Shown piece after piece: positions 15,601-18,600 of a DNA stretch of 64,000 nt (positions are counted from its first letter, which is position 1; every line of letters begins with the position of its first letter). The position numbers were made by a program. The stretch comes from an uncultured Gemmatimonadales bacterium. Lineage in GTDB: Bacteria > Gemmatimonadota > Gemmatimonadetes > Gemmatimonadales > GWC2-71-9. The stretch spans positions 96,001 to 160,000 of the forward strand of contig CAWGSK010000013.1 in assembly GCA_963825055.1 (NCBI GenBank), read 5' to 3'.

Positions 15601-18600
15601 CCGGGCGATCGAGGTCTTGCCCCCGCCTGACGGGGAGGAGAGCACGACCAGGAACGGGCTCACTCCAGGTTTTCCAGCTGTTCCCGGAATTTTTCCAGTT
15701 CCCCTTTCATGACGATCACCTGGGCGGTGATACCGGCGTCGTTCGCCTTGGACCCCATCGTGTTCACCTCGCGCCCCATCTCCTGCGCCAGGAACCCGAG
15801 CTGCTTGCCGACCGGCCCCTTCCCCGCCAGGGCTTCCCGTGCCGCCGAGATGTGCGCGCCGAAGCGGACCAGTTCCTCGGTGATGTCCAGCTTGTCGGCC
15901 AGGAACGCGATCTCCTGTGCCACCCGGGTCTCGTCCGGACTCGCGCCATCCAGCAGTTCGCTCACCGCGGTGCGGAGCCGGTCCCGTTCGCGCACCACGC
16001 GATCCGGCGCCAGCCGCGCAATTTCCCCGGCCGCGCTCTCCAGCAGGTCCAGGCGCAGCCGAAGCTCCCCGGCCAGGGCGGCACCCTCCCGCTCCCGCAT
16101 CGCCTGACAGCCTGCCGCCGCCTCGCGCGCGGCCGGCTCCACGGCCTCCCAGGACACCTCGGGCGCTTCGGTCGGCGGCCCGGCCATCTCGGATTGCCGA
16201 AGGACCAGGGAAAGGTCGATGTCCCCGTCCAGCCGCAGCGCCTGCCGCAGTTCCCGGAGCCGGGCCACCACCGGGCGGGCACGCTCCACGTCCATGCCCA
16301 TCGCCACCCCGGTCTCCGGTGTCGAGGCCCAACGCCCCGAGACCGCGATATGGCCCCGCTCGAAGGCCCCCTTCAGGAACTCCCGGAACGGCGCCTCGAG
16401 GGCAGCCAGGTCCTGCGGGAGCTTGAGGGACAGGTTGAAGTACCGGTGGTTGACGGTCCGTATCTCGATCCGGATCCGCCCCCCGGCCACTTCCGCCTCC
16501 CCGGCCCCGAAGCCGGTCATGCTGGTGGGCAGAATCCCTCCATCCAGAAGTAGCCGTGGAAGTTAGCTGGCTTGGGGGGTGGGAGCAAATGGGAGATGGG
16601 TGACTAGTGACTAGTGACTGGTGACTAGTGACTAGTGCTTGAGTAGAGCGGGTCTGGTCAATATTCACTATTTGACACGACTCGCACCAAAAGGCCACGC
16701 CTGCGCTGCCCGGTTGGAACTATCCTCGACAATGGTGCTGAAGCGAGTCAGGGACTTCCGGGATCTCGTTGTCTGGGACAGGTCCGTGGACTTTGCCGTC
16801 GCATGCTATCAGGCGACCCGGGGTTTCCCTCCGGAGGAAAGGTTTGGTCTCGTGGGGCAGATCAGGAGGTCAACGGCATCCGTGGCGGCGAATATCGCCG
16901 AGGGTTCGGGGAGGAGGACCACACGCGAACTCATCAACGCGCTGGGCATAGCCAATGGAGAATTGAAGGAAGCGGAGTCCCACCTGGAGATCGCCTGGCG
17001 GTTGGGGTATCTGGACAAAGCGCGTCTCGGACAGCTGCGGGAGATGGCCAGGGAAATCGGCAGGATGCTCACCGCACTTCGCCGTTCCCTCAATGGACGC
17101 TGCGGTCGCCAGTCCCACGTCACCGGCCACTAGTCACTAGTCACTAGTCACTAGTCACTAGTTCCTGAACTCCCACCGTGCCCCGAACACGCTCCCGAAC
17201 CTGGGCAATGCGTACTCCGGGACGTAGGCGCGCTTTTCGCCCGACATGTTGAGACGGTCGTAGTAGAGCGAGAGGCTGCCGAGCTGGATCTCGATCAGGC
17301 CCCGGAAGTATGTGGCCCCTCCCAGGACGATGGGGCTCCCGGACGCCGTGCCGATGGTGCCGGTTCCCCAGGCCTCCATGCCAAGCTGGAGCTTGAGGTC
17401 GAAGATGCCGCTCGGGAAACTCCGCAGGAACTTCGAGCGGATGGTGGCCGTGGTGAAGGAGTGGGTGGGAGGGATGCCGTCCACCGTTGCACCAAGCGGG
17501 TCGCTGTACCAGCCCTCGAGAGTTATCCAGCTGAGCGGCGTGATCCGGGCGCGGACGGTGAGCCAGTCGGTCTCGGCGGCGGGACGCAGGGAGTCAACCA
17601 GGAGGTACGGGGTGAAGGGCCGCGCCTGGTAGGCGTGCGTCCGGCTGAGACCGGCCTCCAGCCCCAGGGGGCCGCTCTCCCAGGCGACCAGTGCCTGCAG
17701 GTCGCGCAGCGTCTGGCTGGTGTCGGACACGAGGGAGGGCTGGGCCACGACCTTCCCGATCCGCGCGTTGCCCGCCAGCACGACCCCGAACGGGAGGTTG
17801 AACCCGGCCCGCGCGCCGACCCACTGGCTGGTGCGGTCTCCGTCGTGACGCTGGTATCCGACTTCGCCACTCACGGTAAAACCCGCCACCCCGACGAGGC
17901 CGGCCCGCCCCCGCACGTCCCAGGGTGTCCAGCGCGAGCGGTGAAAGGCGGACCCGCCCACATGGAATCGCGGGGTGCGCCAGTCCGCCATCGCCCCCAC
18001 CTGGGTGACGGACTGCTCCACGCCCTCACCATCCCAGTGGCTCCGGCCGACCAGCAGTTCGAGTCGGGGGGCGGCCGGCGCAGCACGCCAGGAGACCCGC
18101 AGCTGGTTATCGCTCCGGGTGCCATCCAGCGGGAGGCCGATGGTGTCGCCCGCCGCCCGCTCGAACGCCTTTCGCTCCGGCCGCTGGCGGAGGCTCTGCA
18201 CCTGCACGCCGAACCCGTCCGATGGCACCCAGCTCCCCTGCAGCCAGTAGTTGGTCACGGTGGAGCCGCTGCTGAAGCCGCTCCCGGTAGGCGCGTCGAA
18301 GTAGTCGCCCGCGATGGCAAAGCCGAGCCCGTGCTCGAACCGGCGTTCAAGCCCGCCGGAGTACCGGGTGATGCTCCGGTCACCGCTCGCCACGCCCACC
18401 CACGAGCGCGCCGCACGGCGGTCATTCTGCCTGGTAAAGAGGTGTACACGCAGGAAGCCGGGCCACCGCTCCACCTCGATCCGCTCGATCAGGGAGAGCG
18501 CGAACAGCGATGGGTCGACGGCCAGCGTGTCCGTCCCGAGCGGGACGAACGGCAGGCCATCCACGACGTACTCGACCGACGAGGCCCCCCGCCCCTGATA

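Follow-up and report, generated by a model that had tools for sequence, protein, structure and literature searches.

Four-helix-bundle genes between complementary heptamer arrays: a widespread bacterial cassette that resembles the ORF-bearing intervening sequences of rRNA

When a gene for a protein of 133 aa stands in a spacer between two complementary arrays of a seven-letter repeat, one question precedes all others: do the gene and the repeats belong together and, if so, as what? The locus that raises it lies in a 64,000-nucleotide stretch (hereafter, the window) from the genome of an uncultured Gemmatimonadales bacterium, in the spacer 16521-17157 that is bounded by the start of a YicC-like gene and the stop of a TonB-dependent-receptor gene, both on the minus strand. 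The parts are as follows:

15660..16520, minus strand: YicC-like gene, a neighbour, its start 80 nt from the 5' arm
16590..16637, plus strand: 5' arm, a G-rich tandem array, GTGACTA x5.4 (array 16600-16637) plus 10 unique paired bases
16638..16731, plus strand: leader of 94 nt, from the 5' arm to the ATG, starting GTG-CTTGAG
16732..17133, plus strand: four-helix-bundle gene, 133 aa, PF05635 / TIGR02436, distant kin of Avd of the diversity-generating retroelements (DGR)
17128..17175, plus strand: 3' arm, the C-rich complementary array, CACTAGT x5.0 (array 17128-17162) plus 13 unique paired bases
17158..17160, minus strand: the TAG with which the TonB-dependent-receptor gene ends, supplied by the outermost 3'-arm unit; here cassette and host gene meet
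17158..19146, minus strand: TonB-dependent-receptor (Plug domain) gene, a neighbour, reading into the cassette

The two arms constitute a 48-nt inverted repeat (16590-16637 / 17128-17175) with 88% complementarity, and the first unit of the 3' arm contains the TAG stop (17131-17133) of the four-helix-bundle gene, which is the sole ORF of the cassette. The predicted RNA fold is closed by the arms and reaches -282 kcal/mol, as against -234 +/- 5 for shuffles (z = -9.2). A promoter scan detected no sigma-70-like promoter in the 94-nt leader, a terminator scan no terminator-like T-tract at the locus, and PADLOC gave zero matches for it. The contigs that contain at least half of the sampled words of the locus all come from runs labelled soil metagenome.

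The encoded protein matches PF05635 (2e-33, 115.2 bits, cut-off 33.8) and TIGR02436 (4.5e-34, 116.9 bits, cut-off 24) and carries the R-x3-S-x3-N-x2-E motif of these families, rendered as GxxRxxxSxxxNxxE in an excerpt of PMC3936711. In an alignment of 28 sequences, the motif residues R46, S50, N54 and E57 are invariant or at least 90% conserved; the aligned proteins, including six of the seven other copies in the same genome, are 24-46% identical to that of the window. The AlphaFold2 model has four helices (pLDDT 91.9) and, in Foldseek, is matched by 2gsc (TM 0.84/0.95), to which the sequence itself is related at 3.9e-18, and by 2rld (TM 0.74/0.88). Hence, the predicted fold is a four-helix bundle like that of XCC0516 / BT_0352, and, judging from the five chains each in 2gsc and 2rld, the protein may be a homopentamer.

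The genome-wide survey's note, from which the locus was taken up, had counted eight PF05635 genes in this genome and described inverted tandem-repeat arms around them; a profile search confirmed the eight matches, and the arms are present at all eight loci. Their ungapped inverted-repeat scores are 17, 40, 36, 32, 34, 22, 31 and 27, so that seven reach at least 18 and the eighth 17, a value of 18 being attained at only 3 of 1500 random positions (mean 10.7, s.d. 1.9). Two negative statements of the same note also withstood scrutiny, namely, that none of the genes sits in rRNA (Rfam has zero matching families at the window locus at E<=1, and there is no rRNA at the other seven loci) and that a reverse transcriptase is absent (PF00078 has 0 matches in this genome, which is 87% complete). 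The assertion that the repeat unit differs from locus to locus is true in part: the units are drawn from a genome-wide menu of 638 arrays of period 6-10, which reduce to 136 canonical units, and that of the window recurs in 34 other arrays. Among the 623 arrays outside the cassettes, 366 have a unit at most one mismatch away from a cassette arm unit, and the cassette units cover 9 of the top 15 array families of the genome. All 68 empty, that is, gene-less, hairpins of the genome show the G-first polarity of the cassettes, and the start of the window leader resembles the loop starts of the empty hairpins in the GTGACTA unit family. Many empty hairpins of the AGTGAGT/GTGACTA family have, moreover, a common inner motif, GTG-CTTCAG...CTGAAG-CAC, which indicates a dispersed family and not local origin. 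The view that cassettes and empty hairpins are one structure, with and without the gene, is, accordingly, supported by polarity and shared units, and also by the internal deletions in Mesorhizobium described below.

Several further ideas about these arrays were discarded. Long-loop hairpins around genes of 250-400 aa, considered as additional cargo, turned out to be ordinary host genes bracketed by the arrays of neighbouring spacers. The notion of one "master" cassette for each repeat family is partly true in this genome and fails for the empty elements at the yicC site in two relatives (G003 and G007). A RAYT is not the mobiliser of the arrays either, given that the Y1_Tnp gene of the genome (C3:21452-21799) has REP-like palindromes of its own and no heptamer arms.

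Is this architecture a peculiarity of one genome? Within the order, a score of at least 18 was found in 54 of 57 scorable loci as against 3 of 226 shifted controls; in more than 15 phyla, in 54 of 74 as against 0 of 276; and in metagenomes, an independent replicate, in 48 of 64 as against 0 of 96 (pooled controls, 3/598). Arms also frame 3 of 3 loci on viral contigs. The loci in other phyla were sought with an alignment of 7 sequences, and the 80 genome loci are best matches with the motif IPANIAEG, a biased sample that leaves the DGR-linked Avd genes outside. There is no rRNA at 13 cassette loci from other phyla. Contigs frequently end at the repeat arrays; the layout of gene and arms is seen in complete genomes and isolates, too.

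The features of the arms were tabulated for the 127 loci that score at least 16, out of 139 scorable ones. The period is 7 in 65 loci, 8 in 11, 9-10 in 3, and unclear in 48. G exceeds C in the 5' arm of 118 loci, the reverse being the case in 6, and the G-rich arm comes first whichever strand is read. The 3' arm begins a median of 4 nt after the stop codon. Units of the two arms of one locus are at most one mismatch apart in 42 of 48 cases, compared to 8.8% between loci; an array holds a median of 4.4 units (range about 2-17), and the aligned heptamers yield the loose consensus A-G-G-G-R-K-T. The cassette has a fixed plan: a G-rich array of 7-nt (sometimes 8-9-nt) units, a short leader, a four-helix-bundle gene of ~120-135 aa, and a complementary C-rich array that sets in immediately behind the stop codon. 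A role of the arrays as three-frame stops for incoming ribosomes was also considered: stop codons are contained in 40 of 92 G-strand units, as compared to 33.7 +/- 3.8 upon shuffling, and 56 of 1000 letter shuffles reached 40; the enrichment being insignificant, this idea was dropped.

The gene and its arms travel together. The unit is common to 14 of 24 protein pairs that are at least 70% identical and to 2-4% of the pairs that are less than 50% identical; in 29 of 83 cases, a protein and its closest neighbour from another taxon have the same unit (background, 5.5%); and in a Mantel test, 1 of 999 permutations was as extreme. The repeat units therefore track the protein tree across phyla, and both inheritance and horizontal transfer involve the cassette as a single block.

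Orthologous sites are either occupied by a cassette or free of it. In Mesorhizobium, 18 of 61 genomes are filled, 3 are internally deleted, and 40 are empty, and the missing segment begins exactly at the first heptamer. The ten empty sites that were read contain no heptamer array; nine have ~25 nt from stop to start, and one has an unrelated palindrome. Cassettes decay by internal deletion into gene-less repeat-armed hairpins, as can be seen in two orthologues (L172 and L173), which lack the central part of the ORF and have been reduced to short hairpins of this kind. The arrays change their copy number quickly: in 14 orthologues, it varies from 2 to 13 in the 5' arm and from 1.5 to 11 in the 3' arm, and it often differs between the arms of a single cassette (e.g., 2.5 vs 8 in L151); in L173, an 8-nt variant unit occupies both arms. 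The ORF, for its part, is kept by purifying selection, being intact in 14 of 14 orthologues with a median dN/dS of 0.074. Selection of this strength, at a site that is passed on vertically, points to a function of the protein at the level of the host, which a purely selfish and insulated element leaves unexplained.

The yicC-receptor spacer, the site in the window, contains a cassette in 0 of 28 relatives, where 60-170 nt separate the YicC-like gene and the receptor gene, and is filled only in the genome under study. The same spacer contains an empty GGTGTCA hairpin in one relative (L263) and a GGTCGAG array in another (L255); for the empty yicC-site elements of G003 and G007, there is no cassette of the same unit among the loci read there (5 and 7; further loci compared for these units: L064; L010, L015, L027, L039, L043, L049). 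Comparison of filled and empty Mesorhizobium sites revealed no target-site duplication, but the right junction differs between the alleles. Nor were near-identical copies found at different sites (a second Mesorhizobium locus is ~70% identical in DNA, and the best metagenome relative of the window cassette is 52% identical), so that recent movement was not caught.

Where, then, do the cassettes settle? According to the earlier survey, seven of the eight stand antisense between co-directional genes; with crude GC-frame calls, five do so clearly, one lies between convergent genes, and two are left undecided. Beyond this genome the arrangement is not general: among 99 loci, 21 stand antisense to two neighbours that share a direction, 38 point the same way as both neighbours, 37 have a co-directional upstream and an opposite downstream neighbour, both of which read towards the cassette, and only 3 are in divergent (promoter) spacers (all by crude gene calls). 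By the same crude calls, the stop codon of a gene that reads into the cassette falls -15 to +25 nt from the arm edge in 52 of 75 cases on the upstream side and in 26 of 58 on the downstream side. In Bosea, the cassette occupies the nuoC-nuoD spacer, and in Mesorhizobium the spacer between an acyl-CoA dehydrogenase gene and a 3-hydroxyisobutyrate dehydrogenase gene; in these examples, the first array unit supplies the host stop codons. The cassettes follow immediately upon the stop codons of host genes, in spacers that are transcribed; they occur there in both orientations and also inside operons.

With these properties in hand, the cassette can be compared to the known systems. The survey had held that the layout copies rRNA intervening sequences (IVS), and this comparison proved closer than had been claimed. 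According to PMC4990558, the Coxiella 23S IVS consists of an S23p ORF within a 28-bp stem, the 5' arm of which contains 2-3 tandem heptamers GACAGAT in a strain-variable number just before the ATG, and RNase III cuts this heptamer-bearing stem at the first repeat; the rRNA IVS thus shares with the cassette the heptamer arm besides the stem-plus-ORF plan. The PF05635 family, the location of the ORF in the loop of a terminal-inverted-repeat stem, and a patchy, horizontally transferred distribution are, by the same source, also common to the IVS of Coxiella and Leptospira and the cassettes. Members of PF05635 are further mentioned in insertions of 16S and 23S rRNA genes (part of bioRxiv 10.1101/2024.02.27.582315) and between cas genes (excerpt of PMC3936711). 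Unlike the IVS, the window cassette is located outside rRNA genes, such cassettes standing, in both orientations, behind the stops of protein-coding genes; their arms are long arrays of up to 17 units, and their ORF is conserved under selection, whereas that of Coxiella is reported to be decaying. By this analogy, the window locus is best read as a general, non-rRNA form of the S23p-bearing rRNA IVS.

The second likeness is to the short heptamer repeats known as SSR or STRR. In Nostoc sp. KVJ20, arms are present at 11 of the 13 loci with a four-helix-bundle gene, and the heptamer is a different one at each, TTGGTCA and CCCCAGT among them, which we take to be the classical STRR2 and STRR1 units. 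Repeats of this type are described in cyanobacteria, as GGGAATC in Xanthomonas, and as TAACTGA in Beggiatoaceae, and are, like the cassette arms, intergenic G-rich 7-nt arrays that often form convergent inverted, hairpin-forming pairs (PMC4692102, PMC4679880, PMC2670836, each in part). Unlike the cassette arrays, which bracket one gene family, they are tied to no gene in the accessible portions of these papers, and a text search of PMC4692102 and PMC4679880 for 23S, S23, intervening and helix bundle gave 0 matches.

The resemblance to other systems is more limited. Avd is a homologous four-helix bundle (PHROG 3206 at 7e-11; in Foldseek, the predicted window model is matched by 4dwl with TM 0.73/0.90 and also by the DGR ribonucleoprotein 8ub7), but the identity is 11%, the NF033474 score of the window protein is 30.5 bits against a cut-off of 80, and, as noted above, the genome has no reverse transcriptase. 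REPIN-RAYT systems, of which this genome has a genuine example (G000:C3:21200-22010), offer a partial parallel, in that a single gene stands between inverted repeats whose sequence recurs elsewhere in the genome in many gene-less hairpins; the cassette protein, however, is no HUH/Y1 transposase, the repeats are tandem arrays of variable units and not a fixed palindrome, and gene and repeat family match only partially. MITEs and TIR transposons share with the cassettes the inverted ends, the insertion polymorphism and the internally deleted derivatives, yet the cassette encodes no transposase, the genes of Y1_Tnp, the transposase family searched for in the genome, have other flanks, no target-site duplication is seen at the Mesorhizobium junctions, and the ends are arrays that drift in length and unit.

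The explanation that we favour, with a confidence only slightly above even, is that of a widespread, self-contained block cassette whose stem would be cut by RNase III, which would insulate the insertion. A transcript of either strand would expose the G-rich arm first and the C-rich arm last, and these would pair into a double-stranded stem of 20-90 bp. By likeness to the S23p-bearing 23S rRNA IVS, this stem is a putative substrate of RNase III, and cutting would remove or insulate the cassette RNA, so that rRNA genes, operons and the ends of genes could all tolerate the insertion. Long unpaired C-rich RNA is a good loading site for Rho; the G-first polarity might spare the cell the exposure of such RNA while the loop is being transcribed. 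Either selection acting on the stem, or intrastrand template switching combined with slippage, could maintain the complementarity of the arms. The mismatches within the arms include 165 G:T/T:G and 161 A:C/C:A pairs, so that there is no wobble bias; hence, nothing singles out RNA pairing on one strand, and a constraint at the DNA level, or none, is equally compatible. Still more speculatively, the putatively pentameric Avd-like protein might bind the repeat arms of its own cassette, as RNA or single-stranded DNA, and serve the upkeep, processing or insertion of that cassette.

Among the alternatives, a mobile element acting at the DNA level fares best, although we consider it unlikely. The arrays would then be terminal repeats, or hairpins of single-stranded DNA, recognised by the four-helix-bundle protein or a host enzyme that moves the cassette by cut-and-paste or by copying, and the gene-less hairpins would be non-autonomous derivatives, comparable to REPINs with RAYT genes or MITEs with transposons. 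Presence or absence at orthologous sites is what such an element would produce, as are arms that accompany the gene across phyla, but neither target-site duplications, at the Mesorhizobium junctions, nor recent copies came to light. The sharing of units between the eight cassettes and 366 of the 623 other arrays, and the common inner motif of the dispersed AGTGAGT/GTGACTA hairpins, speak for it as well, and the yicC spacer was independently struck by elements of three different units; the empty ones of G003 and G007, however, lack a same-unit cassette among the loci read. Array density correlates with the PF05635 count in 15 genomes of the order (Spearman 0.58, p 0.02), albeit loosely, with 28-80 kb sampled per genome and the genomes being kin and thus not independent; against this, G028 has 9 arrays in 48 kb and 0 PF05635 matches, and G007 has 13 genes and few arrays. 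The lack of wobble bias fits a DNA element, whereas the protein has no known catalytic fold, its solved relative Avd being a non-enzymatic accessory protein, no transposase-like domain or PADLOC match is present, and the Y1 transposase gene of the genome has different flanking palindromes.

A bolder variant, which we deem distinctly unlikely, would have repeat elements of a new class propagate themselves by means of the four-helix-bundle protein as their dedicated factor, RAYT/REPIN-like yet devoid of any known nuclease or transposase fold, with paralogue-specific recognition of heptamers. If this were true, the heptamer repeats of cyanobacteria (STRR), Xanthomonas, Beggiatoaceae and the soil bacterium of the window would all derive from the cassettes and their gene-less descendants, and so would the ORF-bearing rRNA intervening sequences.

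It is less probable again, and in our opinion very doubtful, that the locus is a regulatory device of the host, the hairpin being a terminator, a stabiliser or a translational-coupling element where genes end and the protein an RNA-binding regulator that reads the units, in parallel to the TRAP ring, which reads spaced triplets. The loose heptamer consensus would suit such reading, yet the copy number is fixed neither at five nor at another value; a terminator-like T-tract is missing. The position next to the stop codon of the incoming gene (with the crude-call counts given above), the avoidance of divergent promoter spacers and the purifying selection on the ORF at a vertically inherited site would all befit a regulator, and a stabilising effect on transcripts has been proposed for the STRR hairpins that lie between cistrons in cyanobacteria (PMC2670836, in part); nevertheless, the cassette is absent from 40 of 61 Mesorhizobium genomes and, at the window site, from 28 of 28 relatives, and the neighbouring genes are unrelated between loci. 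Finally, that the arms are pre-existing host hairpins into whose loops the gene inserts, or are due to chance or assembly, is scarcely credible and already largely refuted: targets are indeed plentiful (68 empty hairpins and 638 arrays in this genome), host genes are sometimes bracketed by complementary arrays of neighbouring spacers, and contigs often break at repeats, but none of the ten empty Mesorhizobium sites read has a heptamer array, the deleted segment starts at the first heptamer, the units follow the protein tree and not the host, only 3 of 598 shifted controls score 18, and the layout is the same in complete genomes and isolates.

Our search of the open-access literature, which leaves most older subscription papers outside, found no link between the four-helix-bundle gene and heptamer arrays. 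For annotation, the cassette matters because its gene is often missed, contigs break at its arms, and these arms can form the stop codon of a neighbouring gene. Taken together, the data suggest that the ORF-bearing IVS of rRNA, the heptamer repeats (STRR and others) and the orphan "four helix bundle protein" family are faces of one element. Its plan is fixed and its polarity strict, it is inherited as a block across phyla, and cultured genera offer sites that are cleanly filled or empty. Three puzzles so far treated apart, namely, the origin of the rRNA IVS, the function of heptamer arrays and the existence of a very common orphan family, may thus be joined, and excision from mRNAs, binding of the repeats by a pentamer, and transposase-less insertion of a 0.5-kb block behind stop codons become directly testable questions.

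The spacer flagged in the window lies between two minus-strand genes and contains what we call a cassette, that is, a G-rich tandem array, a gene of the PF05635/TIGR02436 four-helix-bundle family and a complementary C-rich array. Two hairpins with similar arms but without a gene are found further along.

Features of the window
15660-16520, minus strand: YicC-like endoribonuclease gene
16521-17157: flagged spacer
16600-16637: upstream array, GTGACTA x5.4 (5' arm)
16732-17133, plus strand: four-helix-bundle ORF, 133 aa (PF05635, 2e-33; TIGR02436, 4.5e-34)
17128-17162: downstream array, CACTAGT x5.0 (3' arm)
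17158-19146, minus strand: TonB-dependent-receptor gene, Plug domain
26947-27048: gene-less repeat-armed hairpin, AGTGAGT x4.6 with CACTAAT x4.1, G-rich first
56957-57123: gene-less repeat-armed hairpin, CGGTGAA x13.1 with ACCGTTC x3.3, G-rich first

In profile searches, the ORF scores far over the curated cut-offs of both families; its match to the equivalog profile of Avd, the DGR accessory protein, is weak (30.5 bits, cut-off 80). Structure modelling from 28 relatives predicts a bundle of four helices, with a pLDDT of 91.9, that superposes on XCC0516 (2gsc; TM 0.84/0.95) and BT_0352 (2rld) and, more distantly, on phage Avd (4dwl; 11% identity). Together with a few unique outer bases, the arrays make up a 48-nt inverted repeat, 88% complementary, and in the predicted RNA fold of a 606-nt stretch the arms close the whole (-282 kcal/mol; shuffled versions give -234 +/- 5, z = -9.2). 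The first unit of the 3' arm contains the ORF's stop codon, and the last unit of this arm, read on the opposite strand, forms that of the receptor gene. No Rfam family was found at this locus, and a scan found neither a sigma-70-like promoter nor a T-tract terminator there. An AGCC-TG-AA--TAG-like motif (window 16540-16575 and loci L253-L271) is conserved throughout the order Gemmatimonadales at a distance of 20-50 nt upstream of yicC; it is, perhaps, the yicC promoter, with the cassette inserted beyond it.

The genome (3.53 Mb, 35 contigs, 68% G+C, 87% complete) indeed holds the eight family genes listed in the genome-wide survey's note: there are eight PF05635 matches, all bracketed by inverted tandem arrays and none located in rRNA, and no reverse transcriptase was found in the sequence available. 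When 250-nt flanks are scored for inverted repeats in a simple way, without gaps, these loci obtain 17-40; among 1500 random genome positions (mean 10.7, s.d. 1.9), three reach 18. The note's claim that the unit differs from locus to locus holds for the eight genes but not in the sense of private units: the 638 tandem arrays of period 6-10 in this genome, with period 7 by far the commonest, reduce to 136 canonical units, some ten of them abundant, and the one in the window is found again in 34 further arrays. Gene-less arms with loops <150 nt (empty hairpins) account for 68 array pairs. A few long-loop pairs surround ordinary host genes of 250-400 aa; these appear to be adjacent spacers in which the same repeat family occurs by coincidence.

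One spacer can stack several repeat families. In the window, clusters of adjacent arrays with different units occupy 3651-3827, 28997-29164, 36842-36976 and 63015-63234, the last comprising four arrays within 220 nt; examples are GAGGGGTC x6, then CGGCAGG x9, then TCACTAC x6.6, and GGCGGACA x12 and x17. Two hairpins occur on two contigs each in identical form, loops included (C12:202638-202703 and C25:3495-3560; C12:548376-548483 and C21:19036-19143), which suggests either assembly duplication (the stated contamination being 6%) or copying in the very recent past.

The pattern is genuine, far from random and spread widely across the phylogeny. Within the order, 34 of 41 genomes have PF05635, a tally that counts one unpublished genome from which no sequence was taken. 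Among the 60 best full-length matches that do not lie at a contig start, 57 were scorable, and 54 of these score at least 18, as compared to 3 of 226 control positions displaced by 1.0 or 1.6 kb inside the same loci. One sister family has long arms of 50-78 nt that are inverted but not tandem repeats, and some are common to more than one locus. A motif scan with one genome per species yielded at least 597 relatives, the best 80 of which come from Acidobacteriota, Planctomycetota, Verrucomicrobiota, Actinomycetota, Alpha-, Beta- and Deltaproteobacteria, Cyanobacteria, Chloroflexota, Bacteroidota, Nitrospirota, Armatimonadota, Firmicutes and the candidate phyla radiation, among others; in these 80, scores of at least 18 and 16 were found at 54 and 65 of 74 scorable loci, against 0 and 3 of 276 controls, respectively. 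In an independent set of metagenome contigs retrieved with the window protein, a score of at least 18 is reached at 48 of 64 scorable loci (0 of 96 controls), and the three matches on viral contigs have arms as well. Contigs frequently stop within 100-300 nt of the gene, at the repeat arms (L013, L026, L039, L058 and several metagenome loci); copy counts of genes and arrays are lower bounds because assemblies break there.

When the samples are pooled, 127 of 139 scorable loci score at least 16, and these follow a common plan: the arm period is 7 in 65, 8 in 11 and 9-10 in 3, while 48 have no clear period; G outnumbers C in the 5' arm of 118, with the opposite in 6; and the 3' arm starts at a median of 4 nt past the stop codon. 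The units of crisp same-period arms of one locus agree to within one mismatch in 42 of 48 cases, as compared to 8.8% between loci. Because the arms are complementary, the G-rich-first order holds on both strands, and therefore the polarity belongs to the hairpin, not to the direction of the gene; all 68 empty hairpins of this genome have it as well. In compact in-operon copies, only 0-6 nt separate the last heptamer from the ATG, so that any ribosome-binding site must be within the arm. Hairpins also appear to nest in or beside cassettes: in Nostoc sp. KVJ20, one locus (L240) has a second array, AGGGAAT x11, between the ORF and the 3' arm, and another (L234) has a complete empty hairpin just upstream of the ORF.

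Antisense placement, stressed in the earlier note, is common in this genome (5 clear cases of 8) and in the order (14 of 45 loci) but does not hold generally (other phyla, 4 of 48). According to crude GC-frame gene calls at 99 loci, the gene is co-directional with both neighbours in 38, lies between a co-directional upstream and an opposite downstream neighbour, both reading towards the cassette, in 37, is antisense between co-directional genes in 21 and lies between divergent genes in 3. Genes reading into the cassette usually end at the outer edge of the arm (upstream, 52 of 75 cases; downstream, 26 of 58), a pattern that short spacers would partly produce by chance. In Bosea sp. (L249, ~340-880), the cassette is set between the nuoC stop and the nuoD ATG, in the direction of the nuo operon, the host TAA being followed immediately by GGCAATG GGCAGTC x3. 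The spacer after a glutamine-synthetase-like gene carries a cassette, with diverged arm units, in both Brucella pseudintermedia and Mesorhizobium. Published examples of PF05635 genes include some located between cas genes (PMC3936711) and some within insertions in rRNA (bioRxiv 10.1101/2024.02.27.582315). Testing did not bear out the idea that stop codons in the arrays are under selection.

Gene and arms are inherited as one block. Across 83 loci whose heptamer is clear, the more alike the proteins, the more alike the units (Mantel test, 1 of 999 permutations as extreme): the unit is common to 14 of 24 pairs at >=70% protein identity vs 2-4% of pairs below 50%, and the nearest protein neighbour from a different taxon has the same unit in 29 of 83 cases (background 5.5%), as in Chloroflexus and Chroococcidiopsis or in a betaproteobacterium and Chitinophaga. 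Units diverge fast, being mostly different by ~60% protein identity.

Insertion polymorphism is seen in Mesorhizobium. Of 61 genomes, 18 match through the whole cassette without a break, 3 retain the arms and ORF ends but not the middle, and 40 give two flank matches only. The ten empty sites read contain no heptamer arrays, and in nine of them the flanks are ~30 nt apart: the gene end (...LIGR-stop) is followed by ~25 nt with a ribosome-binding site and by the next gene's ATG; the tenth has an unrelated palindrome. The segment absent is 488 bp long and starts exactly at the first heptamer. The otherwise empty site of L171 (genome G046) has a different insert of ~85 nt with a plain palindrome (GCATGTCG...CGACATGC); this operon spacer therefore accepts other small elements too. 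In the filled alleles, the cassette runs with the operon, the host stop being the first unit's TAG or TAA, and their common, distinct right junction argues for a single origin. The distribution is patchy, as some empty genomes have a flanking gene more similar to the query's (92-94%) than that of any filled genome (87-92%). Copy number changes fast, the 14 orthologues having 2-13 units in the 5' arm and 1.5-11 in the 3' arm; one degenerate allele has an 8-nt unit variant in both. All 14 ORFs are intact (122 aa) and under purifying selection (median dN/dS 0.074 at dS 0.79). Two alleles (L172, L173) have lost the ORF middle and are now short repeat-armed hairpins, direct evidence of how empty hairpins can arise.

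At the window site, yicC and the receptor gene are adjacent in most of the order, with 60-170 nt between them, and a four-helix-bundle gene lies there in none of the 28 relatives whose flank is long enough; the window cassette is thus a lineage-specific arrival. Elements with different units have thus struck this spacer repeatedly: upstream of yicC, one relative (G003, L263) has an empty hairpin (GGTGTCA x4, a 16-nt loop, TGACACC...) abutting the receptor stop codon, and another (G007, L255) a GGTCGAG x5 array. No cassette with either unit was found among the loci read from these genomes.

A close counterpart already described is the rRNA intervening sequence (IVS) known from Coxiella, which, in PMC4990558, has a 28-bp terminal stem, GACAGAT tandem heptamers in strain-variable number just upstream of the ATG of S23p, its PF05635 protein, and an RNase III cut at the first repeat; an old proposal of a role for the ORF in mobility is quoted there. 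Nostoc sp. KVJ20 has arms at 11 of 13 loci, with a separate unit for each paralogue, including TTGGTCA and CCCCAGT, which we take to be classical STRR units. The cyanobacterial STRR hairpins and the heptamer repeats of Xanthomonas, Anabaena and Beggiatoaceae are described together with their convergent pairs, their function being called unknown, and the accessible portions of these reports do not mention the four-helix-bundle family (PMC4692102, PMC4679880, PMC2670836). No published link between the two was found in the open-access literature, outside which most older subscription papers fall.

By analogy with the rRNA copies, the arms would pair in RNA from either strand and RNase III would cut the stem, which could make the insertion harmless in rRNA, operons and gene ends. 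A possible reason for the polarity is that, when the G-rich arm leads, the C-rich one would never be unpaired during transcription of the loop and might thus offer no Rho loading site. The protein does something, because its ORF is under purifying selection at a vertically inherited site; since it is kin to Avd, which is part of a ribonucleoprotein (8ub7), the most economical guess is that it binds its own repeat arms. Several observations count against this reading: arm mismatches have no wobble bias (165 vs 161), arm lengths of one cassette are often unequal, neither target-site duplications nor recent cassette copies were found, gene count and array load are loosely linked, and the empty elements of G003 and G007 have no matching cassette among the loci read. 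A further one concerns the RAYT/IS200-like Y1_Tnp gene of the window's own genome (C3 21452-21799, minus strand; region 21162-22010, outside the window), which has the same REP-like palindrome on both sides (GGCCGAGTCGTGGCT...AGCCACGA) in the classical RAYT-with-REP layout, unrelated to the heptamer arrays. On balance, the cassette fits best as the S23p-type intervening sequence in its general form outside rRNA, and it is a probable source of heptamer-repeat hairpins.
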